Shown: in pieces, positions 5,148 through 57,742 of the stretch
Layout: every line of letters begins with the position of its first letter
Position numbering within the stretch: position 1 is the stretch's first letter
Source of the DNA: Dokdonella sp.
Lineage (GTDB): Bacteria; Pseudomonadota; Gammaproteobacteria; Xanthomonadales; Rhodanobacteraceae
Direction: 5' to 3'
DNA: 64,000 nucleotides
Assembly (NCBI RefSeq): GCF_051958935.1
Contig: NZ_JBQCFP010000197.1
Coordinates: 6,855 to 70,854 of the forward strand
Made by a program: the position numbers and the translations under genes
Notes under the pieces: generated by a model
The model's input: the letters and a program-made list of their open reading frames with translations, nothing else
Database searches by the model: none
What the model was told of the DNA's origin: nothing

Positions 5148-5299
5148 CGGCGATTCTCCGCATGCAGGGGGGCGGCCGCGTGCTCGAGCGCGAGCGCCGC
5201 GGCTTCGTCGAAGGCTTCGCGCCGGCGCGTGCTCCAGGCCCACGCGAACAGCGCGGGGAACAGCACGAGCATCAGGGCAATGAGGATTCCCGAGATCAT
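5144..5299 (-). CDS. ccoQ: cbb3-type oxidase small subunit CcoQ
   Basis: It is the 51-aa tail of track ORF 5144..5626 ([34 protein letters not shown]...). It has one TM segment, lies between ccoO and ccoP, and has ATGA overlaps on both sides. Confidence 0.8.
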
Positions 5300-5919
5300 T
5301 TCGCGGCCTCCGGTGCGGGTGCCTGCACGTTCGTGCCGAGCCCTTGCAGGTAGGCAACGAGCGCATCCATTTCGGTCTGGCCGGTGACGGTATCGCGCAC
5401 GCTCGCGAAGTCGGCATCCGTGTACGGCGTGCCGAGCAGCTTCAGCGCGTGCATCTTCTTGGTGACGAGATCCGGATCGACGAGCGCCTGCGACAGCCAC
5501 GGGTAGCCCGGCATGTTCGATTCGGGCACGACGTTGCGCGGGTTCTTGAGGTGCACGCGGTGCCAGTCGTCCGAATAGCGGCCGCCGACGCGCGCGAGAT
5601 CGGGTCCGGTGCGCTTCGAGCCCCACTGGAACGGGCGGTCGTACACCGACTCGCCCGCGGCCGAGTACGGCCCGTAGCGCAGCGTCTCGGACGCGAGCGT
5701 GCGGATCATCTGCGAATGGCAGCCGTAGCAGCCCTCGCGCACGTAGACGTCGCGGCCCGCGAGCCGCAGCGGTGAATAGGGCTTCACGCCCGGCGCCGGC
5801 TCGACCGCCTGCGCCTGGTACATCAGCGGCACGATCTCGGCGAGACCGCCGCTCAGGATCGCGACGAGGATGAGCACGGCCATGAGGCCGACGTTCTTTT
5901 CGATGAAGGCATGCAGCAT
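5296..5919 (-). CDS. ccoO: cbb3-type cytochrome c oxidase subunit II (monoheme)
   Basis: Full track ORF. It has an N-terminal TM segment, the CYGCHSQ heme motif and the conserved [16 protein letters not shown] segment. Confidence 0.95.
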
Positions 5920-5929
5920 GGCGGCGACC

Positions 5930-16279: not shown

Positions 16280-17073
16280 CTAGTCGGTGTAGACGGTCAT
16301 GCCGACCTGCAGCGCGAGCGGAAAGTCGTCGCGACGGTAACGCCGGTGCACGAACCACGAAGCGCCGGGGTCGCGCACGAGGAGGCTCAGCGCAGGGCCG
16401 ATGCGCGCGACGCGCAGTTCCTCCTCGTCGGCCTGCGCCGGCGCGAGCTCGAGGGCCGACACGCTGTGCGTCTCGGGCGGGATCGCCGCGCGCGTGGTCT
16501 TCGCCTCGAGCTGGTAGCTGCCCGGCTGGTCGGCGGCGCCGAACGAGAGGAACACGTAGCGTTCCGCACCCGGCTGCCACCACGAGGAATCGCAGCATTC
16601 CACGTCCTCGTGCGGCGCGCGCACGAGGATGCCCGCGAGCGAGAACTCCGATCCCGCCGCGCCGCCATGCGTGCTGCCCGGCGCACCGCTGCCGCCCCGT
16701 GCGCGCGCGCGCACGCGCGCCGTCGCGACGAAGTCGCCGCTGACGAGCTGGAACGCGAGTTCGCCGACGTAGTCCTCGTACCACGTGCTCGTCCACGGCA
16801 CGAACGTGATCCAGCCCGCGAGCGACACATCGATGTCGAACTGCTCGAGCGGGTCGCGGCCCCAGTATTCCTCGCGCCAGAGGCGGCGCCAGTTGCCGAG
16901 CGTCGCGGACGCATCGAACTCGTCGGAGAACGGCACGATGTCGGCCGACTCGGGGCGCTCGAAGCCGTCGCGCAGCACGAGGTCGGGCAGCGGCAGCTCG
17001 CCCGCATGCGCGGTGCCGGCGGCGAGCACGATACCGAGCAGCGCGCAGGGCGGCAGGGCAATGCGTGGATGCG

Positions 17074-17077
<4 letters not shown>
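16280..17077 (-). CDS. Secreted protein with a concanavalin-A/LamG-like jelly-roll (DUF1349-like); it ends at a possibly non-genuine TAG
   Basis: Track ORF of 265 aa. The GTG start has a GGAGG 5 nt upstream and overlaps the kinase stop (GTGA). The signal peptide is ...LAAGTAHA, followed by LVLRDGFERPES. Confidence 0.7.
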
Positions 17078-19613
<2,536 letters not shown>

Positions 19614-19617
<4 letters not shown>

Positions 19618-20177
19618 GGCGCCATCCACTCGGCCATCCAGGCCTTCGCGCGCTTGAGTTCGCGCTGCACGGTGCGCAGCGAGAGGCCGGTGAGCTCGAC
19701 CAGCTCGTCGCTGTCGAGGCCGATGAACCAATGCTGCTCGATCAGGCGCAGCAGGCGCGGGTCGACACGCTCGAGCAGCGCGAGCGCCTCGTCGAGCGCG
19801 AGCAATGCCTCGTCAATGTTGCCGTCATGCCCATCCGCCGGTGCGAATTCCACCGGCACGCCGCCGCCGCCGCGCTTCGCGCTCGCGCGGGCGCGTGCAT
19901 GGTCGATCACGATCTGGCGCATCACGCGTGCCGACAGCGCGAGGAAGTGCTCGCGCGTGAGGCGCGCATCGGTACCGTTCGCGGCGACGCGCGCGTACGC
20001 CTCGTGCACGAGCACGGTCGTCGACAGCGTCGCACCGGGGATGCGGCGGAACAACTGGCGGTGCGCGATGCGCTTGAGCTCGGCGTATACCTCCGGCAGC
20101 AGCGCGCGCAGGTCGCGCGCGTCACCGTAGCCGGCTTGCGCGAGACGCTCGGCGAGTTCGGCGTCGCTCGTCCCCAT
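19614..20177 (-). CDS. ECF-type RNA polymerase sigma factor (TIGR02999/ECF43-like, kinase-associated class)
   Basis: It starts at internal Met 25 of track ORF 19614..20249 (MGTSDAELAERL...). It has LVHEAYARV in region 2, MRQIVIDHARARASAKRGGG, and the region 4 HTH LSLRTVQRELKRAKAWM. Its stop overlaps the kinase ATG (ATGA). Confidence 0.85.
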
Positions 20178-20257
20178 CGCTGGCCCCGCGCCCCGCCGCG
20201 GTACGGCGGGCACGCTGGCGATTGTGGCGCGGGCGGTCGCGCTGCGCACGCGCGGGC

Positions 20258-21565
20258 TCAGATGCGATCGAACGGGTCGAAGAAGATCAGGTCACCCTGC
20301 AGCTCGACCGCACCGATGTCGCACAGCGCCGCGCCGTTGCCATCGAAGTCGACCGGGCGGTCGTTCAGCGACTGGTCGTCGTCCTCGCAGCCGGTCGCGC
20401 TGAAGAGCGGATGGCCATGATCGATCGCGATGCTGGACGGTGCCGGCCAGATCGTCCGCGTCGGCCCGCCATGGTCGGCGAGCGGCGTGAGCTGCGGATC
20501 GACGCCGACGCGGTTGGTTGCGCCGCCGGACAGGCCACAGGAATCGTCCGAGTCGAGGTTGTAGCGGTTCGTGTCGGTGTCGACCACGGCGGCGATCGAG
20601 CAGTCGGCGAGCGCGTTGCGTGCGATCATCGTGTTGTGCAGCAGCACGCTGCCGTCGTCCATCGCGAGCCCCACTTCGCTGTTGCCGGCGAGCGTCGTGC
20701 TCGACAGCTCGAGGTCGCCGCCGTCGACGTGGATCGCGGTGCCCGTGTTGCCCGAAAGCGTCGAGTTGGCGATGCGCACCTCGCCGCTGCCGGCGCCGAG
20801 CGGCTCGCTGTCGATCGCGTTCGCGGTCGGCGTGAACGTGCCCGCCGGCGCGTCGATCGCGGTGATCGGCACGCCGCTGTTGTCGTGGAACACGCTGTAG
20901 GCGACGTCGAGATTGCCGCGGTTGCGGATCGCGCTGCCGGACGGGGTCGCGCTGCTGTCGCCGCGGAAGATGTTGCTGCGAAAGGTCGATGCGCTCATGC
21001 GCGTGTCGCTGCCGCTGTTGTAGAGGCCGCCGCCGAGTTCGGCGGTGTTGTTCCTGACCTGCATGAGGACGAGGTTGACGGTGCCCGCGCCGGAGCGCAC
21101 CAGCAGGCCGCCACCCGAGGTCGCCGCCGCGCTCGTCGCCACGCCGCCGACGATGTCGAAGCCGAGCAGGGTGACGTTGCCCGAGATCACGTCGAACACC
21201 CGGTCGATGCCGTGCGCATGGACGACCGGCCGCTCGCCCGAGGCGAAGAAGCGGATCGGGAGGTCGTCGTTGATGTCCAGGTCGCCGACCGCGGCGGTGT
21301 CGTCGCCCCGGCCCTCGCGATCGAGGTCGTAATGGAAGCCCGCGAGCAGGTCGACCGTATCGGCGCCGGCGAACGCGTTCGCCTCCATGATCGCCGCTCG
21401 AAGCGTGCATGGCACCGCGCCGGGCTGAGGGAACACATTGCAGAAGCCGTTGCCCGGGATGAGGTCGGGCAGGTCCGCTTCCTGGTTGGCGGTGAAAGTC
21501 GCGGCCTGCGCGGCCACGCAGGCGGTAAAGAGGGCGGCGGCGGCGATCGGCGGGTAGACGTGCAT
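20258..21565 (-). CDS. Secreted right-handed beta-helix protein (CSLREA-type N-terminus, choice-of-anchor-Q-like)
   Basis: It starts at internal Met 41 of track ORF 20258..21685 (MHVYPPIAAAALFTACVAAQA is the signal peptide). It has the CTLRAAIMEAN motif, repetitive N/G/S-rich beta-helix turns and a C-terminal CDIGAVE. Confidence 0.75.
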   Translation of the reverse strand: MHVYPPIAAAALFTACVAAQAATFTANQEADLPDLIPGNGFCNVFPQPGAVPCTLRAAIMEANAFAGADTVDLLAGFHYDLDREGRGDDTAAVGDLDINDDLPIRFFASGERPVVHAHGIDRVFDVISGNVTLLGFDIVGGVATSAAATSGGGLLVRSGAGTVNLVLMQVRNNTAELGGGLYNSGSDTRMSASTFRSNIFRGDSSATPSGSAIRNRGNLDVAYSVFHDNSGVPITAIDAPAGTFTPTANAIDSEPLGAGSGEVRIANSTLSGNTGTAIHVDGGDLELSSTTLAGNSEVGLAMDDGSVLLHNTMIARNALADCSIAAVVDTDTNRYNLDSDDSCGLSGGATNRVGVDPQLTPLADHGGPTRTIWPAPSSIAIDHGHPLFSATGCEDDDQSLNDRPVDFDGNGAALCDIGAVELQGDLIFFDPFDRI

Positions 21566-21639
21566 GGCGGATGCTCCTCGGTGGGCATCCGGTACTACGC
21601 AAATGGATGGCGCAAACGCCATCCACGTATCATTCGCGC

Positions 21640-22320
21640 ATGAACGACACCCCTGCCGCCGCTCCGGCGTTTCCTCCCGAATCATCCAGCCTGCTGCTGG
21701 CGGGCCCCGCCGGCGCGATCGAGCTCGCCTGCGCGCTGCCGATCGCGGCGCCGCCGCGGCGCGGGATCGCGATCATCGCGCACCCGCATCCGCTTCAGGG
21801 CGGCACGATGCACAACAAGGTGGTCACGATCACCGAGCGCGCGCTGCTCGAACTCGGCCTCGCGACCGTGCGCTTCAATTTCCGCGGCGTCGGGCGCAGC
21901 GAAGGCGTGCACGACGAAGGCCATGGCGAAACCGACGACCTGGTCGCGATCGCGCAGTGGCTGCGCGCGCAGCGCCCGGGCGATGCGCTCTGGCTCGCCG
22001 GCTTTTCGTTCGGCAGCTATGTCACCTTGCGCGCGGCGGCGCGGCTCGATGCCGCGCAGCTGGTCCTGATCGCGCCGCCGGTCGGGCGCTGGGATTTCTC
22101 GATGGTCGGCGAGGCGACCTGTCCGTGGCTGATCGTGCAGGGTGAGGACGACGAAGTCGTCGACGCGCGCGCGGTGTTCGCCTGGGCGCAAGGCCTGCAG
22201 CCGCCGCCGCAGCTCATCCGCATGCCGGAGACCGGCCATTTCTTCCACCGCCGCCTGATGGACTTGCGAGGCGCGCTGAAGAACGCGCTCGCCGCGAACC
22301 TGCCGCCCGCGCGCGCATGA
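21640..22320 (+). CDS. Alpha/beta hydrolase fold protein
   Basis: It starts at internal Met 24 of track ORF 21571..22320 (MNDTPAAAP...). It has HPHPLQGGTMHNKV and the nucleophile elbow GFSFG. Confidence 0.8.
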   Translation: MNDTPAAAPAFPPESSSLLLAGPAGAIELACALPIAAPPRRGIAIIAHPHPLQGGTMHNKVVTITERALLELGLATVRFNFRGVGRSEGVHDEGHGETDDLVAIAQWLRAQRPGDALWLAGFSFGSYVTLRAAARLDAAQLVLIAPPVGRWDFSMVGEATCPWLIVQGEDDEVVDARAVFAWAQGLQPPPQLIRMPETGHFFHRRLMDLRGALKNALAANLPPARA

Positions 22321-30533: not shown

Positions 30534-30824
30534 GCGCGACGTCATTGCCGCGCAAACGGGGCATCCCCTCCGGTCCGGCGAAACAGCAGAATGGATGCCC
30601 GCTTTCGCGGGCATGACGTCGCTGGGACGGTTCGACGCTGCCGCGCAACGAGCGGCGCGTGTCACGGCTCCCGCGTCATTCCGAATCCGCGTGGCGGCAA
30701 GGCATGCGTTCCGGCGGGCACCCGTGCTGCGGCCTCGCGCGACGTCATTCCCGCGCATGCGGGAACCGCCTTTTCGGTCCGCCGGGAAGGGCGAGACGCA
30801 TGCGCGCATTCGCGGGGCATGAGA
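30534..30824. repeat. Cluster of about five REP-type palindromic units in both orientations
   Basis: The units are CGCGACGTCATTGCCGCGCAAACGGGGCATCC (30534), its inverted relative GGATGCCCGCTTTCGCGGGCATGACGTCGC (30592), a partial CGCGTCATTCCGAATCCGCG (30671), CGCGACGTCATTCCCGCGCATGCGGGAACC (30737) and an inverted GCGCATTCGCGGGGCATGAGAC (30803). Confidence 0.75.
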
Positions 30825-30982
30825 CCGGACGAACATCCGAGCGCAGCAGGAGGGCAGGCGCCCATGCCGTGCATCGACGTTGCCCATGCCCGTCCTTCAC
30901 CGCGCAGGCTCGAGTCGCGCCGTCGGCGCGACGCGATGGGCAATCGTGCGCCGGACGATCGAGCGCGCGGGAATGCCCGCCG

Positions 30983-33418
30983 TCAGTCGAATCCGTTGCG
31001 GAACCCCACGTCGGGCAGCACGCCTCCGGGAACGGTGTAGCGCGCGATGACCCGGGCGCCGCTTTGCAGTTCGTAGGCGCCGTAAACGGCGCCGTCGTCG
31101 AGCATGCGCAACGCGTATGCACTCGCGTCGGTGCCCGCGTAAAAGCGCGCTCGGTCGGCCAATGTCTGCGGATCGAGCAGCAGCGGCCTGATGGTTTCCG
31201 CGGAAGCGAACTCGTCCATCAGGAAGCCGAGGGGCGCCGCCTGCTGGAAATAGCCGTAGGGGGCATCGTAGCGGATGACCTCGACGTGGCCCGTCGAGTC
31301 GATCAGGCGATAGATGAACTGGCCGGCGTCTTCGATCCTCGCAGTCGTGTCCAACAACCAACGCCCGTCGGACGTCGCGACGAGCTGCCACGGCTGCTCG
31401 TACGGGACGAGTTCGGCGAGGCCGATGTCATCGTCGGCCTGGCCATCGGCGTCGATGACGCGCATTCGCAAGCCATCGGGCGACGTCGCCGGCAACACGG
31501 CCGCGGTACGGCCTCCGGCATCCTGCGCGACCGCGATCGCGCTCGCATCGGGTTCCGGGAAGGTGTAACGCCATACCTGCGTGCCGTTCGCCGCAAGCCT
31601 CAGCAGCGTCAGATGCGTCGGGATACAACCCACCGTGCAGCCGCCGACGCCCTTCACCGCCACGAGCGTGTCGCCGTCGGGAAGGCGGCGCGCACTCTCG
31701 ATGACGTAGTTGCCGTCGGGAAGCGCGTGATCATGTATGCCCGTGTCGGAGCCGTCATCTCCTACGCGTTGCCATTTCAGCGGGGCAAACGCACCGGTGC
31801 GCAGGACGACAACGTCGCCGTCGCCGGGCAGCAGGCGGAACGGGTCGAAGTCCGACCCGGCGGCGCCCGATGCCACCTCGAAAGCAAGGTCGCCGTTCGC
31901 ATCGAAGCGTTGGATGTGCGTGCTGCCGCCCGGCAGCGTGAGCGACGGACGATCCCATCGAACCGCCCACGCCCCGCCATCGGCGGCGAGTACGGCGGAC
32001 GGCCACAGGCTTGCATCGGTGTAGTCGGCACACCAGGTGCACGCGTGCACGCGCCAGCGCAGATCGCCGTTCGGCGAGTACAGGGCCAGATGCGCATACG
32101 TGTCGACGAGAACGCCCGTATCCGTGCGCGCATCGAGTCCGGCCACCGAGGCCGGCACTTCGACGCCCCGGCAGGGCCGATCGAACCACGTCGCTTGGCC
32201 GGTGTCGTCGAGGTGTGCGACGCGCGGGTAGATCGCGCACGGATCGTCGGATGCAGCGGTGTCGCGCACGAGCAGCGATACCACGCCGTCGTCGTCGCGG
32301 CGTGCGCGGCTCGCATCGCCATTCGCCGCAGCGAGCGGCACGCTCCAGCGGCCGGTGCCGTTCGCATCGATGGCGATCGCTTCGATGCCGGCGACGCTTT
32401 TGCGGATCGCCACGACACCCTCGTCGAGCGCGACGAAGTCGCCGCCCGGCACCGACCACAGCGTCGATCCGGTCGCGGGATCGATGCGACGGACGATCGC
32501 GTCGTTGTCATAGCCGGCGAGCGCGTAGACGGCGCCACCACCGTCATGACCGACCTGGCGGTATTCGGTCACATCGGCGGCCGACCAGTACAGCAGGTGG
32601 CCGAGCGCGTCGTAACGCGCGTAGAAACCCAGGTTGCCGAAATTGCCGACCACGCGAACGCCGCCCGTACCTGGTACGTCGATGTCGGCCAGCTCCGCGG
32701 CGCCGCAGCCATGGCATGTAGACACGTCGGAAGACAGGAGCAGGCCACCGAAATCCAGTCGTGTGAGCGTCGCGGTCCCGTCGAGCCAACCGCCGCCGGA
32801 GCTGGCCACCCAGATCGCCTCGTCGGCAACGGCAAGATCGCCGCGGACGAAGGCGCTCGTCGCCGTTGGATCGGCCCAGGTCCAGCTGACCGAGCCATCG
32901 GCTTCGACGCGCGTCACCCGGTACCCTTGCATCGCGACGACCGAATCGTCGTCGAGCAGCGCCAGGCGCAGGCAGCTGCCTTGCACCAGGCAGCTCGATG
33001 CGGTCGGCAGCGAGAGCTTCCAGGAACGTTGCAGATCGGCGTCGAAGCGCATGACGACGGCCTCGCCCTGCGATCCGCCCGCGAGGACGTAGAACCCCGC
33101 GTCGTGGGCGGCGCGCACGGCCACCTCGGGAGTCTCCTGCGAAAGGGCGTCCTCGAGCCGTGTATCCAGTACGTGGCCGTCCGCTGCATACCGGCGCAGC
33201 ACGATCCGGCCCGGCGCTGCGGTGACGGCCACTTCACCACCGTCGGCGAGGCGCAGCGCGACCGGATCGCCGGATCCCGGCAGTCCATCGTACGCAAGCG
33301 CCTGTTCGGACAACGTCGTCGTCCACAGCGGCTGCAGCAGCGGCACGTCGCCCGCATGCAACGGGCCCGCAGCGAGCAGCAGCGCGACCCCTGCGGTCGA
33401 CACGCGTGCCATGCGCAT
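30983..33418 (-). CDS. Large secreted PQQ/BamB-like beta-propeller repeat protein, Cys-pair rich
   Basis: Full track ORF of 811 aa. The signal peptide is MRMARVSTAGVALLLAAGPLHA. Recurrent D/N-x-x-G-x-x-x-W strands occur (DPATGSTLWSV, DANGTGRWSV, AANGTQVWRY, SPNGDLRWRV). The C-terminus is VGFRNGFD. Confidence 0.75.
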   Translation of the reverse strand: MRMARVSTAGVALLLAAGPLHAGDVPLLQPLWTTTLSEQALAYDGLPGSGDPVALRLADGGEVAVTAAPGRIVLRRYAADGHVLDTRLEDALSQETPEVAVRAAHDAGFYVLAGGSQGEAVVMRFDADLQRSWKLSLPTASSCLVQGSCLRLALLDDDSVVAMQGYRVTRVEADGSVSWTWADPTATSAFVRGDLAVADEAIWVASSGGGWLDGTATLTRLDFGGLLLSSDVSTCHGCGAAELADIDVPGTGGVRVVGNFGNLGFYARYDALGHLLYWSAADVTEYRQVGHDGGGAVYALAGYDNDAIVRRIDPATGSTLWSVPGGDFVALDEGVVAIRKSVAGIEAIAIDANGTGRWSVPLAAANGDASRARRDDDGVVSLLVRDTAASDDPCAIYPRVAHLDDTGQATWFDRPCRGVEVPASVAGLDARTDTGVLVDTYAHLALYSPNGDLRWRVHACTWCADYTDASLWPSAVLAADGGAWAVRWDRPSLTLPGGSTHIQRFDANGDLAFEVASGAAGSDFDPFRLLPGDGDVVVLRTGAFAPLKWQRVGDDGSDTGIHDHALPDGNYVIESARRLPDGDTLVAVKGVGGCTVGCIPTHLTLLRLAANGTQVWRYTFPEPDASAIAVAQDAGGRTAAVLPATSPDGLRMRVIDADGQADDDIGLAELVPYEQPWQLVATSDGRWLLDTTARIEDAGQFIYRLIDSTGHVEVIRYDAPYGYFQQAAPLGFLMDEFASAETIRPLLLDPQTLADRARFYAGTDASAYALRMLDDGAVYGAYELQSGARVIARYTVPGGVLPDVGFRNGFD

Positions 33419-33558
33419 GGAGGCCTCCTTAATTCCGTCGAGCGTGCCACGAGAATATCAGGAGGCCAGCGCTTCCACGCCACCGTCACGCCGCCCGAGG
33501 GCGGCCTCGTATCCGATTCCACATCGATACCATGGGCCCGGAGCGGCTGCAGCGCGGA

Positions 33559-36285
33559 TCAGGATCCGTGGTCGTGCGCGAGCCCGAGCAGCGTCTCGTT
33601 CGCTTTCGCGGCCACCGTGTCGGCGGCGCCAGCCGCGCCGAGCCCCTCCACCGCCGTCCGCAGCAGCGGCTCGGCGGCGGCACGATCGCCGCGCCGGGCG
33701 AGCGCGAGGCCACGCAGCGCGTCGAGGCGGAATTTCCACCATCCGTCCGCCGCGCCAGCCTCCAGTGCCTTTGCGTCGAGCGTGCCGAGGCCTCGCATCG
33801 CGTCGTCGACGCGTCCGAGTTCGATCTCGGCCGCGGCGAGCCAGAACGCGGCAACCTGGCTTTGTGGATTGTCCGCGCCGAGTTGCGCGGCGAGCTTGGC
33901 CGCGGCCTCGCGCAACTTCGGCTCGGCGTCGCGCGTATCGCCCGACTCGTACAGGGCCTGGCCCCAGTTCGCGAGCGTGACCGCGGTGACGTTGTGCCCC
34001 GGGCCGAACAGCTTCCGAAATCCCTCGTGCACGCGCCGTGCGTAGTCGAGCGCGTGCGGCCAGTCTCGTCGCTTCATCGCGACGTCGAACAGGTCGCTCA
34101 GCACCATGAGATTGCGCGTGTGATCTTCGCCGAGGCGCTCGACGATCGTCTTCTGCGCCGCGAGCAGTCGTTCCTCGGCCTTCGCCGGATCGCCGCCCTG
34201 CGTCCAGGTGCGGGCGATCGCGGCCTGCGCGAAGGCGATCACGAGGGCGTTGTCGTCCGGGCGCGAACGCGCTTCGGCGATGAGGTCCTCGCCTTCCGCA
34301 CGTGCCTCGTCGAGATGGCCGGTCTGGGTGAGGGCCCCGATGAGGTCCATGCGCATCGAGTCGCGCAAGGTGAAATTGCCGGGGTCGGTAGCGCGCAGCA
34401 GCGGGATCGCGGTGCGGTACTCCGGTAGCGCCCTGGCGTAGTCGCCGCGGTTCATCGCGTCGAGGCCCCACGCCGACGCGCGCAGGAAGCGCAGGCGGGG
34501 ATCGGTCGAATCGCCGATCAGGCGATCGAGTGCGTGCAGGTGCTCGAGGGACTCGTCGAACTTGCCCGTGCGCGTGAGCAGGCGCGCGAGCAGGGTGCGC
34601 GCCTCGAGTGCATCGCGGCTCGCCTCGCCTTCCTCGCGCACGTACAGCGCGAGCGCGCGCCGTGCCTCGTCTTCGGCTTCGGGCAGCCGATCGATCATGT
34701 TGAGCAGCATCGCAAGGCTCGTGCGGATCGACGCTTCGGCGAGCGGCTGCGCGGCGAAGCGCGTCGCGATGCGCGCGCGCGCGCCGAGCAGCACGTCCTT
34801 GAGCGACGCATCGCCACCCTTTGACAGCACGAGCGGATTGGATCGCCCGATGAGGTCCTCGTTGAGGAAGCGATTGATCGCGTTCGCGCGCCCGAGCTCG
34901 CGCCGCGCGTCGTCGCGCGCACGCGTGGCCGCGATCCACAGGCCGAGCGCAAGGGCGAGACCGGCGATGAGCGCACCGACGAGCGCGATCACGTACGGCC
35001 GGCGCGCGCGGCTGCGTGCGACGGCCTCGCGCGCTTCGCGCGCACGCTGCTCGGACAGTGCGCCGGCCGCGCGCGCCTCGCGCCGCGCTTCGAGGCTGCG
35101 CAGGCGTGCGGCGAGTGTGGCCGCGCTCGCGAGGCGTCTTTGCGGCTCGCCGTCCGTCGCCAGGCGGATGTCTTCGCGCAGCAGCTCGTCGTCGACGTCG
35201 CGCTCCCAGCCGGACGCCATCGGCCGGGCGAGGTCGCCGGCGACGAGCTGGTACAGCATGACGCCGAGCGCATAGACGTCGCTGCGCACGGTCGGTGCCT
35301 GCCCGGCGAACAGCTCGGGCGCGACGTAGAGCGCGGTGCCCGCGGTCGAGTCGGTCGCGACATCGCGCGCGGTCGCGGGCCCGAGCCGCGTGATGCCGAG
35401 TTCGGCGAGGCGCTCGGGGTCGACGAGATGGCCGCTGCCGAAGTCGGTCAGGCGAACGTGCGGCGTGCCGCCGCGACCATCGACGAGCACGTTCGCGGGC
35501 TTCAGGTCCTTGTGGAGCACGCCGACGCCGTGGGCAGCCGCGACCGCATCGACGATCTGCAGGAACAGCGCGAGGCGCGCCTCGGTGCCGGTCGCGGCAA
35601 GCGACGCACCCGCCCACTCGAGCAGGTTGTCGCCACCGTATTCGCATTCGAGGAAGAACGGCGGCTGTTCGAAGTTCCAGTCGATGATGTCGACGAAGTG
35701 GCCGCCCTCGTCGAGGCTCTCGCGCAGCACGCGGGCGAGCGTCGCCTCGCGCTTGAGCGCGCGCAGGCGCTCGCCGTCGGCGCCGAACTTGTAGACGCGC
35801 AGCACGTGCGTCTTCGCCTGTTCGGCGAGCCAGACCTCGCTGCCGCGATTCACGCCGAGCGCGCGCCGCAGGGTGAAATTCGGTCGCCCGGGGACGGGCC
35901 GGCCGGCTGCGAGTTCGAGCCGGCTGTCGATGCGCCGGCCGACCGCGACGCGCGCGACCTCGCCGTCGAGGCGGTAGCCGACGCGTGCCTGCGTCACCAG
36001 GCGCTCCGCGTTCGCCTCGCCGAGCGCGCGCCGGAGCTTGGCGATCGCATTGGGCAGCACCTTGTCGACGGTCACGCGACCGGCCCACACCTCGCGCAGC
36101 AGTTCTTCCTTGGTCACCACCTCGCCCGCATGGCGCAGCAGGTAGGCGAGCACGTCAAGCGCGCGTCGCTCGACCTCGACCGGCAGGTCGGCCACGCGCA
36201 GTTCGAAGCGCGCCTCGTCGAACTCGGCGCTGCCGAAACGATAGCGGTAAGCATGCGGCTCGCGCAGGTCGGAAGCGTCGGTCAT
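33559..36285 (-). CDS. Fusion protein: OmpR/CadC-type winged-helix DNA-binding domain, Hanks Ser/Thr kinase, TM segment and TPR repeats
   Basis: Full track ORF of 908 aa. The wHTH domain is YRFGSAEFDEARFELRV...ELLREVWAGR...RVGYRL. The kinase has HKDLKPANVLV, DFGSG and VAPE. The TM segment is YVIALVGALIAGLALALGLWIAA. An ANAINRFLNEDL juxtamembrane motif and TPR-like repeats follow. Confidence 0.9.
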   Translation of the reverse strand: MTDASDLREPHAYRYRFGSAEFDEARFELRVADLPVEVERRALDVLAYLLRHAGEVVTKEELLREVWAGRVTVDKVLPNAIAKLRRALGEANAERLVTQARVGYRLDGEVARVAVGRRIDSRLELAAGRPVPGRPNFTLRRALGVNRGSEVWLAEQAKTHVLRVYKFGADGERLRALKREATLARVLRESLDEGGHFVDIIDWNFEQPPFFLECEYGGDNLLEWAGASLAATGTEARLALFLQIVDAVAAAHGVGVLHKDLKPANVLVDGRGGTPHVRLTDFGSGHLVDPERLAELGITRLGPATARDVATDSTAGTALYVAPELFAGQAPTVRSDVYALGVMLYQLVAGDLARPMASGWERDVDDELLREDIRLATDGEPQRRLASAATLAARLRSLEARREARAAGALSEQRAREAREAVARSRARRPYVIALVGALIAGLALALGLWIAATRARDDARRELGRANAINRFLNEDLIGRSNPLVLSKGGDASLKDVLLGARARIATRFAAQPLAEASIRTSLAMLLNMIDRLPEAEDEARRALALYVREEGEASRDALEARTLLARLLTRTGKFDESLEHLHALDRLIGDSTDPRLRFLRASAWGLDAMNRGDYARALPEYRTAIPLLRATDPGNFTLRDSMRMDLIGALTQTGHLDEARAEGEDLIAEARSRPDDNALVIAFAQAAIARTWTQGGDPAKAEERLLAAQKTIVERLGEDHTRNLMVLSDLFDVAMKRRDWPHALDYARRVHEGFRKLFGPGHNVTAVTLANWGQALYESGDTRDAEPKLREAAAKLAAQLGADNPQSQVAAFWLAAAEIELGRVDDAMRGLGTLDAKALEAGAADGWWKFRLDALRGLALARRGDRAAAEPLLRTAVEGLGAAGAADTVAAKANETLLGLAHDHGS

Positions 36286-36345
36286 GTGGAAATTTCGAAG
36301 CGGGGCATCTGTTTGCGCAAGGGTGGCGCAGCCGTGCGAGGGCCG

Positions 36346-36363
36346 CGTTACCCAATCGTTACC
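36346..36363. promoter_or_regulatory. Direct repeat CGTTACC-N4-CGTTACC (11-bp period), a candidate winged-helix operator
   Basis: The exact sequence is CGTTACCCAATCGTTACC. It lies in the divergent region between the wHTH-kinase gene (start 36285) and the secreted-protein gene (start 36524). Confidence 0.4.
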
Positions 36364-36523
36364 GCGGCGATGACGAAACGGGCCGCCTGCACGCGACCCC
36401 CTACGCTAGCATGATCCACGCGCGCACTACGCGCCTCCTCGTACCACTAAATGAACCGGCTGCCCTGCATCCGGCGAGGTGGCTGTGCGCGTCCGCAAAA
36501 CCCCTGAGCCGAGGAATGGAACC

Positions 36524-38173
36524 ATGTCGATCAAACCATCCGCCGTCGCCGCCGCCGTCGCGTGCGCCCTCGTCCATGCTTCACCCGCCGCTGCACAGGC
36601 CGTGGCGTGGCGCGCGGTAGCCGGGCAATCCGGCAGCGTCGCCGTCGCGAACCTGCCCCCGGGCGTGGACCGCTCGTACTCGGACGTCTCGATCGGCAGC
36701 GCCGGTGCGGGGATGGTCGGGATGCGCGTGAGTTCGCCGAGCGCGAGCAGCGGCTACTGGGCGCGGCGCAACGGCGTGCTCTCACGCTACGTGCAGGCGG
36801 GCGTCACCGGCCCGCTCGGCCCCGGACGTGGCGCCGGCGAAACCCAGCACGTGTTCCTCTCATACCAGGGCGGCTGGAGCGAAGCAGGCCCCGATGGGCA
36901 GCGCGTGTTCGCCGCGCGTGCGGGCGACCCCGCGCTCGGCGACGCACAGGCGAGCTGGGGTCTGTGGCGATGGGACGGGACGAAGAACGTCGAGATCGCG
37001 CGCGTGCTCACCGACGGCGCGCTCGGCCCCGGCCTCGGCGCGGGATGGCGCTTCCAGAACTCGCCCGAGTTCGCGGGCGCGCGCATGGTTGGCGGCGGGC
37101 GCGCGCTGCTCGTTGGCACGGTGACGACGCCGTCCACTGCGACGCGCGACGTGGTCGTACTGCATGACCCGGGCACGGGCAACGTACCGTGCGCGCTCGA
37201 GGACTCGACCGATCCCACATTGGCGCCGGGCCTCGTCGCCGGCGACTCGTTCCCTGCCGACTGGAACGGTTCGCTCAGCGTATTCGCGGTAAGCGCCGAG
37301 GGCGCCATCTACGCGCGCCTGCAGACGAGCAATTCGCGCGGTGGCATCTGGCAGCTGTGCGACGGCGCGCCGCGCGCACTCGTCGCCGACGACGACACCG
37401 GCGCGCTCGGGCCGGAACTCGGCGTCGAGACCGCGTACTTCTCCTCCGTCTACGGGCCACCCAAGCCGGCCGACGCCGGTCGCGTGTTCTTCGTCGCGAC
37501 GGGACGCGTCGCCGTGGGCGGCGCGAGCTTCGGGGGCCTGTTCCACCACGATGCGAACGGCAACTGGCCGCTCGCGCTCAATGGCGACACCGGTGCGTAT
37601 TCGCCGCACTGGCTCGACGCGACCTTCACCTCCGTCGACGAGTCCACGCTGACCGCAGCGGGCGAATGGGCCGCGTTCGAGGCCACCCTGCATACCGGCG
37701 ACGGTGCCTCGCCGGTGGGCCTGTTCCGCGTGCGGCCGGGCGAGGCACCCGAGCCCGTCGCAATCATCGGTGCCGACGTACCGTATGCGCCCGAGCCCAA
37801 TCGCATCTGGTCCAGCCTGCGCGCGAGCGCGGTGCTGGCGAACGGCGACATCGTGCTGGAAGCCTACACGAACCCGGACAATGAATACGCGCTGTGGCTC
37901 CTCAAGCGCGGCGAAGCGCCGCGCCGCGTGTTGCGCGCCGGCGATGTCGCATGGGTACCGACCGCGGCGGGCAACGTACAGGCGGCCATCACGAGCTTCA
38001 CCCCGGCGGGAGGCGCGGGCGTGGCGCAATACGACCGCGGTGGCGATTCGTGGATCGGCGCGGACGGCACGATCCTCGTCTCGGCGTCAGTCAATGGCTA
38101 CGGCTCGGTGCTGCTGATGGCGACGCCGTCGAATCCGATCGATCTGATCTTCCGCAACGGGTACGACGGCTAG
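36524..38173 (+). CDS. Secreted repeat protein (resembles the choice-of-anchor NxxGxxAF / DUF7453-type tandem repeat family)
   Basis: It starts at internal Met 16 of track ORF 36479..38173 (MSIKPSAVAAAVACALVHASPAAAQA is the signal peptide). Recurrent [DNA]-x-G-x-hydrophobic-hydrophobic-x-A strands occur (ANGDIVLEAY, ADGTILVSAS, AEGAIYARL). The C-terminus is DLIFRNGYDG. Confidence 0.7.
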   Translation: MSIKPSAVAAAVACALVHASPAAAQAVAWRAVAGQSGSVAVANLPPGVDRSYSDVSIGSAGAGMVGMRVSSPSASSGYWARRNGVLSRYVQAGVTGPLGPGRGAGETQHVFLSYQGGWSEAGPDGQRVFAARAGDPALGDAQASWGLWRWDGTKNVEIARVLTDGALGPGLGAGWRFQNSPEFAGARMVGGGRALLVGTVTTPSTATRDVVVLHDPGTGNVPCALEDSTDPTLAPGLVAGDSFPADWNGSLSVFAVSAEGAIYARLQTSNSRGGIWQLCDGAPRALVADDDTGALGPELGVETAYFSSVYGPPKPADAGRVFFVATGRVAVGGASFGGLFHHDANGNWPLALNGDTGAYSPHWLDATFTSVDESTLTAAGEWAAFEATLHTGDGASPVGLFRVRPGEAPEPVAIIGADVPYAPEPNRIWSSLRASAVLANGDIVLEAYTNPDNEYALWLLKRGEAPRRVLRAGDVAWVPTAAGNVQAAITSFTPAGGAGVAQYDRGGDSWIGADGTILVSASVNGYGSVLLMATPSNPIDLIFRNGYDG

Positions 38174-38225
38174 GCGTCGTCGTCGATCAGGGTCGCCGCA
38201 TCGCGGGCGGCCGCCTCGTCATTTT

Positions 38226-38253
38226 GCGGCGGCGCAGGTGCCTGCGCCGCCGC
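38226..38253. terminator. Perfect 13-bp GC hairpin between convergent genes
   Basis: GCGGCGGCGCAGG, a TG loop and CCTGCGCCGCCGC form the hairpin. The T-run lies on the 5' side only (CATTTT), so this is not a canonical intrinsic terminator in either direction. Confidence 0.35.
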
Positions 38254-38264
38254 TGTCAGCGGTG

Positions 38265-38432
38265 CTAGACGCCCGGACCGCGGCGACCCATGACCAACGA
38301 CACGACGAACAGGACGAGGAACACGAGGAACAGGATCTTCGCGATCGACGCCGCGGTGCCGGCAATGACGCCGAAGCCGAGCACGCCTGCGATGAGCGCG
38401 ATCACCAGAAAAACGATGGCGTAGTGGAGCAT
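38265..38432 (-). CDS. DUF1328 / UPF0391 small membrane protein
   Basis: It is the 55-aa tail of track ORF 38265..38546 ([47 protein letters not shown]...). AAGGAGAA lies upstream. Confidence 0.85.
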
Positions 38433-50872: not shown

Positions 50873-51087
50873 CTTGCATCTCCGTCGTGCCCGCGTCGGG
50901 CACTGCTGGCGAAAAAGGTAGGGTCGGCGGGGCGGGCGCACCAGTCGGCGCGACCGCGACGCAGTGTTCGCGTGGACGCACGCCGGCCAGGGCAATTCCG
51001 CGGGAGCAGCGGCAGCCGCGATGCCCTTCGGCCCTCGCAGGGCGGCACGCTCGCAGCGCGTGCCGCCGCCGGGCGCGCCGATGCCCG

Positions 51088-51860
51088 TCAGCTACGCAAC
51101 CCGACGCCCCGCCGAAGCAACGTCAACGCAATCGCCGCGAGCACGACCGCGAACGCGAGCATGACTGCGTAGGCCGTCCACATCGGGATGTCGCTGATGC
51201 CGAGCAGGCCGTAGCGGAACGCGTTGACCATGTAGAGGATCGGGTTCGCATGGCTGATCTCGCGCCACGGCGAGCCGAGCTGGTTGACGGAATAGAACAC
51301 GCCGCCGAGATAGGTGAGCGGCGTGAGCACGAAGGTCGGCACCAGCGCGATGTCGTCGAACTTCTTCGCGTAGACCGCATTGACGAAGCCGGCGAGCGAG
51401 AACACGACCGCGGTGAGCAGCACGGTCGAGAGCGTGATCCACGGGTGGTAGAGGTGGATGCGCGTGAAGAACAGCGAGATCGCGAGCACGATCAGCGCGA
51501 CCATCAGCCCGCGCAGCACCGCGCCGGTGACGTAACCGGCGAGCACGACCCAGCTCGGCATCGGCGAAGCGAGCATCTCCTCGACGTAGCGGCCGAACTT
51601 CGAGCCGAAGAACGAGGACGAGATGTTGCCGTAACTGTTGGTGATCACCGCCATCATGATGAGCCCGGGCACGATGTAGTCGATGTACTGGATGCCTTCG
51701 GCGACTTCGCCGATGCGGCTGCCCACCATGCGCCCGAAGATGACGAAGTAGAGCGTCATCGTGATCGCCGACGGCAGCAGCGTCTGCATCCAGATGCGCA
51801 GGATGCGCACGACCTCGCGGCGGGTGATCGTGCCGAACGCGACGAAATTCGGGTTCGCGC

Positions 51861-51864
<4 letters not shown>
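51088..51864 (-). CDS. yadH: ABC-2 type transporter permease (YadH-like)
   Basis: Full track ORF. It has RILRIWMQTLLPSAITMTLYFVIFG and six TM segments. It has an ATGA overlap with the ATPase gene. Confidence 0.88.
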
Positions 51865-52808
<944 letters not shown>

Positions 52809-52894
52809 GGAGCCTTGGAGGGAGCCGGGACGGGGTCGTTCGGCGGCTGCTGGTAGTATAGCGGGCCGTTTTGCGCGTCCTACGTTCGGTCTCG

Positions 52895-53638
52895 ATGGAA
52901 CATTTCAAGCTCCGCCTCGCTGCGAGTCACATGCTCGCCCCCACCGTCCGCCACCTCGCGTTCGAGCGCGAGGACGGTGCGGCGTTCGCCTTCGTGCCAG
53001 GCCAGTTCCTGCAGATCCACTTCCACTACGCCGACGGCAAGCCGACCAAGCGCAGCTATTCGGTGGCGACCATCGGCGACGGCAAGGGGCCGGTACAGCG
53101 CATCGAGATCGCCGTTTCCTACGTCGAGGGCGGCGCGGCGACCGAATTGCTGTCGACGCTCGACGAGGGCGGCACGATCGAGGCGAGCGGCCCGTACGGA
53201 CGCTTCTGCCTCATGGACGGCGACACCAACGCACGCTACCTGCTCGTCGCGACCGGCACCGGCGTCACGCCGTACCGCGCGATGCTGCCGCAGATCCGCA
53301 CGCTCACGCGGTCGCGCGGCTGCACGTTCGCGCTCGTCTACGGCGCGCGCAACGAAAGCGAGCTGCTCTACGGCGAGGAGTTCGAGGCGTTCGCGCGCGA
53401 GGTGCCCGGCTTCACCTTCCATCCCTGCCTCAGTCGCACGCCGCGTGCGGTGCCGCGTCCGCACGACCGTCATGGCCGCGCGCAGGTCGCGCTCGGCGAA
53501 CTCGGCCCGAATGCGGCGACCGACATCGCTTACCTCTGCGGCAACCCGAACATGGTCGACGAGGCGTTCGCGATGCTCAAGGAAGCGGGCCTGCCGGTGC
53601 CGCACATCCGCCGCGAGAAATACGTCTCCTCGCGCTGA
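52895..53638 (+). CDS. Ferredoxin-NADP+ reductase family flavoprotein (FAD/NAD-binding)
   Basis: I start it at Met 9 (MEHFKLRL...) of track ORF 52871..53638. It has RSYSVA (FAD binding), GPYGRF, VATGTGVTPYRAM and YLCGNPNMV. Confidence 0.8.
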   Translation: MEHFKLRLAASHMLAPTVRHLAFEREDGAAFAFVPGQFLQIHFHYADGKPTKRSYSVATIGDGKGPVQRIEIAVSYVEGGAATELLSTLDEGGTIEASGPYGRFCLMDGDTNARYLLVATGTGVTPYRAMLPQIRTLTRSRGCTFALVYGARNESELLYGEEFEAFAREVPGFTFHPCLSRTPRAVPRPHDRHGRAQVALGELGPNAATDIAYLCGNPNMVDEAFAMLKEAGLPVPHIRREKYVSSR

Positions 53639-53641
53639 GCC

Positions 53642-54631
53642 TCAGTAGGTCACGGTCACCGTGATCTTGTCGCTGTAGGCGCCCGCCGGCATCGGCGCCT
53701 GCGGCGCGACGCGGCCGTACACGGAGAGCACCTGCGCGAGACCGGTGCCGCTGCCGGCCAGCGTGTCGGTATTGAGCGTCGTGCCCCAACGCTGGTTGCG
53801 CGCGCTGTTGCGATAGAGCTCGTAGGCGACGCGGCTCGTGCCGCCGGCCATGCGGCGCGTCGTGCCGAGTGCATTCTGGCCGTTGTCGAGGCCGACCTGC
53901 CACGCGGTGTTGCGCGTGCAGGTCATCGTGATCGCCGATTGCTGGTCGATGTTCGCCGCGAAGTTGCTCGGCACCGAGCCGAAGTTCATGTCGCTCGCAG
54001 TGCCGATCTGGCAAAGGGAGGCGACGGTGGCCCGCGCCTGGAAGTCGAAGTTGTCGCTGCCGTCGCCCGTGCACGTCGCCGGATATGCTGGCGGCCCGAG
54101 GATGCTCTCGCTCGCGTTGTAGGTCATCTGCGCGGCATTGCCGCTGAACAGGCTCGAGTACGCGCCGGCGGCAAGGCTGGTCTGTCCGGCCGGCACGCGC
54201 CCGTAGAGGGTGAGGCTGCCGTTCTGCGTGGTGGTGCCGAGGAACGTGCTCAACTGCATGTGCGTGGTCACCGCGGGAAGGCCGGGCGCGGTGGACGAGC
54301 CCCAGACGAGGTTGCGCGCCGAATCGCTGTAGATCTGGAAGTTCATCGACTCGGTGCCCGCCTTCATCGTGCGCGGCGTGTAGCCCGTGCCGCCCGAGCC
54401 GGGTCCGATGTTGAAGCACAGGGTCACCGACGAGCCGCTCAGGAAGCCGGTGAAGGAACACCGGTAGTTGAGCGTCGCCGTCGTGTCGACGAGCGCGCCG
54501 GTCGGGTCGACGTTGCCGAACACGAGGTCGGACACCGAGGTGATGCTGCAACTCGTCGCCGCCGACGCGCCCTGCGCGGCGGCGAGGAGCAAGAGCAGCG
54601 CGGCGATGCGCGTGCGGATGCGGATCATCAT
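53642..54631 (-). CDS. Two-domain spore-coat-U (SCPU) pilus subunit, probable tip/adhesin subunit (CsuE-like position)
   Basis: Full track ORF with a signal peptide ending ...AAAQGASA. Two SCPU-like halves each contain F/MNFG and Y(R/S)...W motifs. The C-terminus is DKITVTVTY. It has an ATGA overlap with the usher stop. Confidence 0.8.
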   Translation of the reverse strand: MMIRIRTRIAALLLLLAAAQGASAATSCSITSVSDLVFGNVDPTGALVDTTATLNYRCSFTGFLSGSSVTLCFNIGPGSGGTGYTPRTMKAGTESMNFQIYSDSARNLVWGSSTAPGLPAVTTHMQLSTFLGTTTQNGSLTLYGRVPAGQTSLAAGAYSSLFSGNAAQMTYNASESILGPPAYPATCTGDGSDNFDFQARATVASLCQIGTASDMNFGSVPSNFAANIDQQSAITMTCTRNTAWQVGLDNGQNALGTTRRMAGGTSRVAYELYRNSARNQRWGTTLNTDTLAGSGTGLAQVLSVYGRVAPQAPMPAGAYSDKITVTVTY

Positions 54632-57018: not shown

Positions 57019-57742
57019 CGCCGTTGATCCTCGATTGCAAGTGCGCGTCGCGCGTGCCGGCCGGGATCTTCACCGCCCAGCGCATCGTGCTTCCTGGCAG
57101 CACGTAGCCGAGCAGGCCCGGCACGAGTTCATCGCGCTGGCCGTGCGATTCGAGCGCGAGGTTGCCGAGCTGGGCGTGCGTGCCGCCGTCGTTGCGCACT
57201 TCCAGTGCGGTTTCGCCGTCGCGTTCGACGAGCGTGCCGTGGAGGTCGGGGCCCGTCTGGCCTTCGGCCGTGACGAACACCGGAATCGAGTAGCGCAGCA
57301 CGAACTTGAGCTGCGTGCCGGCGGCCGCAGGTGGCGGCGTTGCCGCGTCAGCGACCGGTTCGTCCACCGGCAGCTCGTCGACGATGATGCGGTAGGCCGC
57401 TTCGGCGCGCGTTGGCGGCAGGCCGACTCGGATCACGCGTACGAGCTGGCGCGCACCGGGTGCGAGCTCCAGCATCGGTGGGCTGATCGCGAGCGCGCGC
57501 GACGGCTCGAGGTGTTCCTCGCCGCCGCGTTGCGTCCATTCGTACACGCGCGCCTGTGCGTGCAGGGCCTCGGCGCTCGTGTTGGTGAGCCACAGGCCGT
57601 CGGCGTTCTGCGCGGGGCCCAGGCTCAGCGTCGTCGGTGCGACCTGCAGTCCGGTCGCCCCGGCCGCGCCGGCGAGCGCGAGCGAAAGCAGCGAAGACGC
57701 CAGCAGCGTCGTGCCATGGTTCATTCGCCCGCGCATCGGCAT
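56975..57742 (-). CDS. Periplasmic pilus chaperone (PapD-like, Csu/archaic type)
   Basis: Full track ORF with a signal peptide. It has GLQVAPTTLSL...RVYEW and the IIVDELP motifs. It overlaps the usher start by 44 nt. An alternative start lies at 57724. Confidence 0.8.
   Translation of the reverse strand: MPMRGRMNHGTTLLASSLLSLALAGAAGATGLQVAPTTLSLGPAQNADGLWLTNTSAEALHAQARVYEWTQRGGEEHLEPSRALAISPPMLELAPGARQLVRVIRVGLPPTRAEAAYRIIVDELPVDEPVADAATPPPAAAGTQLKFVLRYSIPVFVTAEGQTGPDLHGTLVERDGETALEVRNDGGTHAQLGNLALESHGQRDELVPGLLGYVLPGSTMRWAVKIPAGTRDAHLQSRINGDAVERVVATIDQRP

Follow-up and report, generated by a model that had tools for sequence, protein, structure and literature searches.

Within a stretch of 64,000 nucleotides from Dokdonella sp. 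(contig NZ_JBQCFP010000197.1; hereafter the window), positions 30983 to 38173 (locus A) hold a gene for a 908-residue protein in which a winged helix-turn-helix, a Hanks-type Ser/Thr kinase, a membrane helix and a tetratricopeptide repeat (TPR)-like solenoid are fused, lying between two genes for exported proteins, of which the divergent one is its predicted regulatory target. The G+C content of the window is about 70%, so genes were called by third-position GC, which supported all seven genes of locus A and of a second locus (locus B) encoding an extracytoplasmic function (ECF) sigma factor and another TPR kinase. An earlier annotation of the window (the original prediction) had proposed that both loci are copies of one undescribed arrangement, namely a kinase-TPR sensor with a DNA-binding output flanked by secreted proteins. 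The genes and domains that it listed are real by third-position GC and by Pfam and NCBIfam matches, and Sec-type signal peptides, judged by eye, are present on all four proteins flanking the kinases of the two loci. The features of locus A are as follows.

33559 to 36285, minus strand: fused regulator of 908 residues with a CadC/OmpR-type winged helix, a Hanks Ser/Thr kinase, one membrane helix and a TPR-like solenoid (Pfam/NCBIfam matches, AlphaFold2 model)
35944 to 36249, minus strand: winged helix-turn-helix domain, residues 13-114 (Trans_reg_C, E 8e-14; best named match CadC)
35098 to 35886, minus strand: Hanks-type kinase domain, residues 134-396, non-RD with the loop HKD (Pkinase, E 5e-21)
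34921 to 35001, minus strand: membrane helix, about residues 429-455 (hydrophobic stretch YVIALVGALIAGLALALGLWIAAT, preceded by RSRARRP)
33571 to 34836, minus strand: TPR-like alpha-solenoid, predicted periplasmic, residues 484-905, about 22 helices (TPR_12, TPR_10, TPR_19)
36524 to 38173, plus strand: exported 549-residue multi-bladed beta-propeller of an unnamed family, predicted regulatory target (signal peptide, predicted model, synteny)
36346 to 36387, minus strand, that of the kinase gene: predicted operator array of two perfect GGTAACG units (36346-36363) and two degenerate ones, with 11-bp phasing
36407 to 36412, plus strand: -10-like hexamer TAGCAT facing the 549-residue gene, with fixed spacing to the operator array
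30983 to 33418, minus strand: exported 811-residue PQQ/BamB-like propeller protein ending in VGFRNGFD, with a Sec-type signal peptide (PQQ_2)

The 908-residue protein is 88% identical to its D. fugitiva orthologue and 55% identical to that of Delftia acidovorans. Its Pfam matches span residues 35-106 (Trans_reg_C), 196-353 (Pkinase) and 518-840 (TPR_12, TPR_10 and TPR_19), and inspection of the sequence placed a hydrophobic stretch at about residues 431-454. The AlphaFold2 model (mean pLDDT 85) comprises the winged helix (13-114), the kinase (134-396) and a juxtamembrane helix, followed by a long membrane helix from residue 429 and by the solenoid over residues 484-905, with pLDDT mostly above 90. 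The modelled winged helix has the four-strand sheet, three helices and wing of the OmpR type, and the modelled kinase activation loop is disordered. Since there is a single membrane helix and the winged helix and kinase are necessarily cytoplasmic, the solenoid would lie in the periplasm. An N-terminal OmpR-type winged helix, one membrane helix and a C-terminal sensor domain of about 420 residues together make up the layout of ToxR-like activators. An identity as an anti-phage defence kinase (PD-T4-6, MADS or BREX PglW) was considered and rejected because the PADLOC and NCBIfam matches cover the kinase domain only; these matches fall far below the equivalog cutoffs, and the neighbouring genes gave no such match.

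The predicted catalytic signature of Hanks kinases is complete in this domain (beta3 Lys, alphaC Glu, the H-x-D-x-x-x-x-N loop, DFG and APE), and the C-lobe aligns to PDK1, PknA and PknB. In an alignment of 48 homologues reaching down to 53% identity, K166, E180, H258-K259-D260, N265, D281-F282-G283, T317 and A322-P323-E324 were invariant. The catalytic loop reads HKD and not HRD in 48 of 48 homologues (residues 258-260; window 35506-35514), making the protein a non-RD kinase, and the activation loop carries an insertion of about 14 residues. It could be argued that the domain has become a structural or dimerisation spacer devoid of catalytic signalling, in what would then be a plain ToxR/CadC-type receptor. 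The divergent N-lobe with its degenerate glycine-rich loop (LGVNRGSEV), the non-RD loop and the lack of a nearby phosphatase gene are all in line with such a spacer, as is the fact that ToxR and CadC signal without phosphorylation (PMC5430869). The invariance of K166, E180, D260, N265, D281 and the GT/APE segment across the aligned homologues, however, argues for selection on catalysis as far as sequence can tell, and we consider a spacer role quite improbable.

The fused regulator belongs to a large and uniform family present in Gamma-, Beta- and Alphaproteobacteria. Its 120 best homologue clusters are almost all about 900 residues long, and Trans_reg_C and Pkinase were found in every one of them. 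A scan of one genome per GTDB species returned 153 genomic matches, from which 79 distinct loci (1.40 Mb in total) were retained. Hosts among the Xanthomonadales/Lysobacterales include Dokdonella, Tahibacter, Rudaea, Chiayiivirga, Aquimonas, Stenotrophomonas, Luteimonas and others, those among the Burkholderiales are Delftia, Roseateles, Rubrivivax, Mitsuaria, Piscinibacter and Comamonas, and further hosts are Steroidobacteraceae, Panacagrimonas, Parahaliea and the alphaproteobacterium Iodidimonas. Complete genomes with a member of the family include those of Tahibacter sp. UC22_41 (CP170554) and Rubrivivax sp. RP6-9 (CP187368). The cytoplasmic half alone, searched against 1.84 billion representatives clustered at 50% identity, gave 1,867 matches at E<=1e-30, a number that may include kinases from beyond the fused-regulator family; the best 150 of the 1,867 were mostly full-length proteins of about 900 residues, aligned from about residue 10 to about residue 430. 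A literature search found no paper on a winged-helix/Hanks-kinase fusion.

The open reading frame (ORF) divergent from the regulator gene (36479-38173, plus strand) likely starts at the ATG at 36524 and encodes 549 residues, with a signal peptide and a mature N-terminus that are conserved across homologues. The protein is identical to one from a Dokdonella sp. metagenome-assembled genome. Its predicted model is an all-beta, multi-bladed propeller (pLDDT 89.9) from which a disordered C-terminal tail, ...DLIFRNGYDG, emerges (tail pLDDT 38). Comparison with PDB structures retrieved generic propellers only (TM <=0.34), and no sequence relative was found in the PDB. The label "NxxGxxAF-like" under which this protein had originally been entered could not be upheld, as no Pfam or NCBIfam match was obtained even at E<=1, and DUF7453 (PF24251) was matched by only 1 of 41 homologues. 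The family is narrow (130 homologue clusters, all of about 540 residues and all annotated as hypothetical), and a literature search found no paper on it or on DUF7453.

In about 38 distinct Xanthomonadales loci, a homologue of the 549-residue protein (35-84% identity) is encoded divergently from, and directly upstream of, the kinase gene, and in a reciprocal look-up starting from propeller genes the kinase gene was adjacent in two of three. The other flanks of locus A, among them the isocitrate dehydrogenase (IDH) and DegV genes, were retained only in the closest Dokdonella. Elsewhere the divergent partner is another protein: in Burkholderiales lipoproteins with InlB B-repeats, in Delftia and Comamonas Big_3_5 proteins with sorting-signal-like tails (with an IPTL-CTERM match in Delftia), and in Rudaea a CsgG-like/PG-binding lipoprotein. 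No homology to the propeller was detectable in any of these non-propeller partners, and the Burkholderiales lipoproteins were rejected as propeller homologues at an hhalign probability of 0.5%. These lipoproteins (640-710 residues, with InlB B-repeats and a beta-rich region; loci L042, L045, L048, L049, L050 and L068) have a conserved extreme C-terminus of their own, RNSLWA.[LV]RR.

The 238-nt intergenic region between the kinase and propeller genes contains GTTACCcaatcGTTACC at 36347-36363, and GGTAAC-N5-GGTAAC occurs only once in the window. When both strands of the 79 loci were scanned for sites with at least 11 of 12 matches, 73 of the 80 were located before the kinase gene at a distance of up to 600 nt, without exception on the kinase strand. 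Alignment of 53 distinct loci gave the consensus cATGCTAGg, a gap of about 17-21 nt, and GTcGGCACG-N4-GgcAACG-N4-GGTAACG-N4-GGTAACG. In 34 of the 53, TAGnnT stands exactly 48-49 nt from the strong repeat pair (background 0.006 per 17-nt window), and the operator array ends about 20 nt upstream of TAGCAT/TAGnnT. From this fixed spacing, the repeats would span about -35 to -80 of a promoter firing toward the divergent gene. OmpR/PhoB regulators bind head-to-tail on direct repeats with a periodicity of about 11 bp that overlap the -35 region of the promoters they activate, as in pho boxes, and activation from repeats over about -35 to -80 is the PhoB-type layout. Direct repeats with 11-bp phasing close to a conserved TAGnnT thus have the appearance of an OmpR/PhoB-type site. 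A scan of 30700-38400 for consensus sigma-70 promoters gave 0 matches, and a sigma-54 reading of GGCACG-N4-GGCAACG was discarded, the GG-to-GC spacing being one base short and TTGC absent.

These repeats might instead serve the regulator's own gene alone, the divergent gene merely sharing the intergenic region. Their position, always upstream of the kinase gene and in the same orientation, agrees with such autoregulation, and so does Dokdonella sp. BIN16, in which the kinase gene lies on another scaffold (L016) than the propeller gene and still has the module. On the kinase side, however, there is no conservation toward the ATG (operator-ATG distances range from 18 to 171 nt), and the element at fixed distance is the TAGnnT that faces the divergent gene. 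Moreover, three genomes with rearrangements (L021, L096 and L097) show the module still attached to the propeller gene: in Tahibacter soli the module is found downstream of the kinase gene, before a propeller-like gene, and in BIN16 (L096) and L097 the unlinked propeller gene retains it. In Burkholderiales the module is identical although the partner gene differs. Finally, Rudaea sp. 3F27F6 has a second complete operator and TAGCAT module (L019 8200-8270) facing the gene of a 635-residue Big_3_5 protein with a sorting-signal-like tail (L019 6340-8247), so that the regulon can extend beyond a single exported protein. Taken with these arrangements, exclusive autoregulation seems distinctly improbable.

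The protein that would bind the repeats is suggested by more distant relatives. Within the group of homologues with GGTAAC operators the recognition helix is invariant, and homologues at 40-47% identity have CTAAC[CG] repeats with the same 11-bp phasing together with an altered recognition helix (TVDKVLPNA to TV[DE]NVxANA, that is K75N and P78A; ERRA to QRKP). Because half-site and recognition helix co-vary, the fused winged helix is the predicted repeat-binding protein. The link between the fused regulator and the propeller gene as its target is well supported by these sequence patterns, and the regulatory dependence of propeller gene transcription on the winged helix that had been envisaged at the outset finds backing in the conserved operator/promoter module.

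We therefore favour, as fairly likely on this sequence evidence, that locus A consists of a transmembrane one-component regulator and its target gene, with the winged helix activating the divergent gene of the exported propeller. The winged helix and Hanks kinase would reside in the cytoplasm, a single helix would cross the membrane and the TPR-like solenoid of about 420 residues would extend into the periplasm. Several winged helices would bind head-to-tail on two to four GGTAACG units spaced by 11 bp, and the array covering about -35 to -80 would activate the 549-residue propeller gene much as PhoB does at pho boxes or CadC and ToxR do at their promoters; the operator may in addition exert feedback on the gene of the regulator itself. 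The TPR solenoid may read a signal in the periplasm and thereby alter kinase dimerisation and autophosphorylation, and the state of the kinase may in turn set the oligomerisation of the winged helices on DNA or their contact with RNA polymerase.

Several observations weigh against this interpretation. The two promoter-proximal operator units are degenerate in the window itself, and in many loci the operator lies only 18-60 nt from the kinase ATG; on account of this proximity, it may repress or activate the regulator's own gene, also or instead. The kinase N-lobe is divergent, the Pfam match beginning only at profile position 59, no phospho-acceptor can be named (the conserved winged-helix threonines are the ordinary structural ones of the OmpR family) and neither a phosphatase nor an FHA gene was found near the 908-residue kinase gene. 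A propeller homologue in Tahibacter amnicola lacks both the operator and an adjacent kinase gene. In addition, what is proposed here on the sign of regulation (activation or repression), on phosphorylation and its role, on the periplasmic signal, on repeat binding by the winged helix and on the transcription start is deduced from sequence. Upstream of the T. amnicola orphan gene (L093 5830-5870) lies, in place of the operator, a 31-nt palindrome, CGAAACATATG...CATATGTTTCG, which suggests a different regulator there.

With the ToxR-like activators (CadC, ToxR, TcpP and PsaE) the fused regulator shares the N-terminal OmpR-type winged helix, the single membrane helix and the C-terminal periplasmic sensor, and, by prediction, the binding of repeats near the target promoter (PMC5430869). 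ToxR-like receptors signal without phosphorylation (PMC5430869) and have a short linker between winged helix and membrane, whereas in locus A a complete kinase with conserved catalytic residues intervenes: a Hanks kinase of about 290 residues and a juxtamembrane helix are inserted between winged helix and membrane, and the sensor is a TPR solenoid and not the periplasmic domain of CadC or ToxR. The winged-helix DNA-binding domain is also shared with the OmpR/PhoB response regulators, but the protein differs from them by lacking a receiver domain and a His-Asp phosphorelay and by having its winged helix N-terminal and tethered to the membrane. In PknH-EmbR and AfsK-AfsR, a Ser/Thr kinase controls a separate OmpR/SARP-type (Trans_reg_C-type) DNA-binding protein; these systems, which belong to Actinobacteria, consist of two proteins, the regulator bearing FHA or NB-ARC/TPR modules, whereas in locus A the elements are fused in a single proteobacterial membrane protein. 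In the ECF43 sigma/Hanks kinase pairs (PknS-EcfK of Xanthomonas citri and PknT-EcfP of Vibrio parahaemolyticus), a transmembrane kinase with periplasmic TPRs controls transcription by Ser/Thr phosphorylation (PMC13147305); the output of locus A differs from theirs in being a fused winged helix, with no separate sigma factor. Locus A is thus best read as combining a ToxR/CadC-type receptor with a Hanks receptor kinase.

Routes from Hanks kinases to transcription are known in few cases, the kinase there acting on a separate regulator or sigma factor, whereas the fused regulator would unite sensor, kinase and DNA-binding output in one membrane protein. With an operator, a promoter and a target gene predicted, this path from a periplasmic signal to transcription could be tested with few constructs. 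The exported propeller target and the terminal tail motif described below are likewise uncharacterised.

On the other side of the regulator gene, the label PQQ/BamB-like for the 811-residue protein proved correct (match at residues 306-456, E 2.3e-8, above the Pfam cutoff). This gene is a narrow accessory of the propeller gene in a Dokdonella subgroup. Only 27 homologue clusters were found, and a homologue lies downstream of the kinase gene in five to six loci. In L096 and L097 it is convergent with the homologue of the 549-residue gene, with no kinase gene nearby, which ties it to the propeller gene; its product may be an accessory partner of the propeller protein. A possible operator before the PQQ-like gene was rejected, as it amounted to a GGTATCG-N4-GGAATCG with three mismatches in the wrong orientation, and 22 such loose three-mismatch matches occur in the window against about 10 expected. 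No terminator or structured RNA was found in the 140-nt spacer between the kinase and PQQ-like genes (fold z = -1.7). In the Dokdonella-like L096 (7001-11360) and L097 (2809-7200), the convergent PQQ-like/propeller pair sits beside aceK and an isocitrate dehydrogenase gene, and the window, in which the two genes stand on either side of the kinase gene, likewise has an adjacent isocitrate dehydrogenase gene, of the monomeric type, so that proximity to IDH recurs.

Locus B had been described as an ECF sigma factor and a kinase-membrane helix-TPR protein together with a secreted CSLREA/beta-helix protein, a composition that Pfam and NCBIfam matches bear out. Its features are as follows.

21596 to 21620, minus strand: ECF-like promoter motif G[GT]CGTTT-N16-TGCGTA preceding the beta-helix gene (conserved among eight aligned upstream regions)
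20258 to 21565, minus strand: exported beta-helix/choice-of-anchor Q protein with a CSLREA-like CTLRAA, ending in DLIFFDPFDRI; first gene of the operon
19614 to 20249, minus strand: ECF sigma factor (PF07638/TIGR02999), ECF43-like
17074 to 19617, minus strand: PknS-like receptor kinase with an N-terminal extension of about 85 residues, a Hanks kinase, a membrane helix and predicted periplasmic TPRs
16280 to 17077, minus strand: exported 265-residue protein with LVLRDGFERPE just after the signal peptide (signal peptide by eye)

The sigma factor scored 156.5 bits against TIGR02999 (cutoff 126.15) and E 3.9e-38 against PF07638, and the kinase E 1.4e-28 against Pkinase and 4e-25 against TPR_12. 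The gene calls for the beta-helix protein and the kinase extend over 20258-21685 and 17074-19731. The sigma stop codon overlaps the kinase start (ATGA) and the kinase stop codon overlaps the start of the 265-residue gene (GTGA). For the 265-residue protein, formerly called a jelly-roll protein, neither a family match nor a PDB sequence match was found. A hallmark of the ECF43 group is co-occurrence with a kinase (PMC13147305, PMC7826278), and its members replace the DxxD of region 2.2 by uncharged residues that include a conserved Thr (QTTA) (PMC13147305). In PknS of X. citri, which phosphorylates the ECF43 sigma factor EcfK, the kinase domain is preceded by an N-terminal extension and followed by a membrane helix and periplasmic TPRs (PMC13147305). 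Locus B has the same composition, including the N-terminal extension of the kinase: its sigma factor falls in the kinase-associated ECF clade (with TIGR02999/PF07638 as proxy), a Hanks kinase gene is adjacent, and region 2.2 reads LSTTVLVHEAY, with TT where ECF43 members have QTTA. By these sequence characters, locus B is a member of the known ECF43-like sigma/PknS-like kinase pairs, so that of the supposedly undescribed arrangement only locus A, for which no description was found, is left. Unlike in the PknS/PknT-type pairs, the operon carries an exported beta-helix protein and is not part of a type VI secretion cluster.

Seven further loci (L003, L005, L084-L087 and L089; kinase identity 37-87%) repeat the order beta-helix, sigma, kinase, and eight repeat sigma followed by kinase, the metagenome scan for locus B having yielded only nine loci. 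Homologues of the 265-residue gene were found only in L084 and L091, the closest relatives. The aligned promoter motif is a candidate recognition sequence of the ECF43-like sigma factor, on which the operon may depend. Locus B would do the same job as locus A with separate parts, the PknS-like kinase phosphorylating the ECF43-like sigma factor, which would then direct transcription of the operon headed by the beta-helix gene. The metagenome contig L091 also encodes (3502-6285), at a few kb from its kinase operon, a 927-residue protein with an N-terminal winged-helix-like sequence, for which the window showed no counterpart.

The proposal that the same logic occurs twice therefore stands insofar as both loci pair a kinase-membrane helix-TPR protein with a DNA-binding output, but not as kinship. 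Only 83 residues of the catalytic core of the two kinases could be aligned (45% identity), for which reason we regard the loci as analogous, neither duplicates nor close paralogues; no mutual similarity was detectable between their TPR domains. As for the synteny on which the original prediction had staked its case, one exported neighbour per locus is conserved, the 549-residue propeller gene in locus A and the beta-helix gene in locus B, whereas the PQQ-like and 265-residue genes are narrow and variable accessories. The limitation of these two genes to close relatives is what would be expected if the neighbours were coincidental and formed no functional module. For the propeller and beta-helix genes coincidence is already contradicted by the synteny and operator data, in that synteny persists across genera while other flanks change and the operator module co-varies with the recognition helix; as a general explanation it is extremely improbable.

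A short terminal motif shared by the exported neighbours of both loci had also been reported, and scans with strict and relaxed patterns recovered it. The strict pattern F.[DN]G[FY][DE] occurs twice in the six-frame translation of the window, at the extreme C-termini of both flanking genes of locus A, and among about 51 supported ORFs of the window only the four flanking genes of loci A and B have the relaxed motif at a terminus. The tail, [ILV]F-x-[DN]-[GP]-[FY]-[DE], is located as follows.

30986 to 31003, minus strand: tail of the 811-residue PQQ-like protein
38150 to 38167, plus strand: tail of the 549-residue propeller protein
20258 to 20290, minus strand: tail of the beta-helix protein
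16960 to 16990, minus strand: motif of the 265-residue protein

The motif forms the very end of large exported Xanthomonadales proteins, with one case (the 265-residue protein) just after the signal peptide, and, unlike in PEP-CTERM-type signals, no membrane helix follows it. All propeller homologues have a signal peptide, with tail variants IFRNGYDG, IFKNGFDA, IFRNDFE, VFRNGFE and LFSDGFE, and the beta-helix homologues of locus B end in D[VL][ILV]F[FH][DE]P[FW][DE]R[LI]. No curated family model was found for the tail, and a literature search on DGFE-type terminal motifs gave nothing relevant. Further proteins with the tail are encoded at L017 15561-18440, L026 20599-22623, L035 6340-8118, L039 2985-7991 and L054 2192-7006.

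The original prediction had read the motif as a link between kinases and neighbours. In that scheme, the TPR solenoid would bind the exported neighbours, for example through the free tail, report on their abundance, folding or export, and adjust transcription; this would add to, and not exclude, the one-component regulator proposed for locus A. Recognition of free C-terminal peptides by TPR domains has well-known examples in Hop (EEVD) and PEX5 (SKL). The confinement of the motif to a terminus of the mature products of the four flanking genes, its retention in propeller and beta-helix homologues, and the disorder of the tail in the predicted model, which would leave it accessible, are consistent with such feedback. 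Beyond these homologues, however, kinase neighbours cease to share the motif, as the exported partners of orthologous kinases in Burkholderiales, Rudaea, Delftia and others are unrelated and have no such tail. Moreover, 12 further ORFs, of about 844 in the fetched loci (about 1.5%), have the tail, which hence looks like a general lineage tag, and the lack of detectable similarity between the two TPR domains also speaks against this scheme. We consider feedback from the exported neighbours unlikely. A more specific version, in which the tail would be a recognition tag on large exported Xanthomonadales proteins and the TPR solenoids of both kinases would be receptors that monitor export or assembly by DegS-like sensing of C-termini, adjusting transcription through the fused winged helix in locus A or the phosphorylated ECF sigma factor in locus B, appears rather unlikely as well.

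Unrelated to loci A and B, the window also contains a chaperone-usher pilus gene cluster at 51000-57100, with the usher gene at 54628-57018 on the minus strand.

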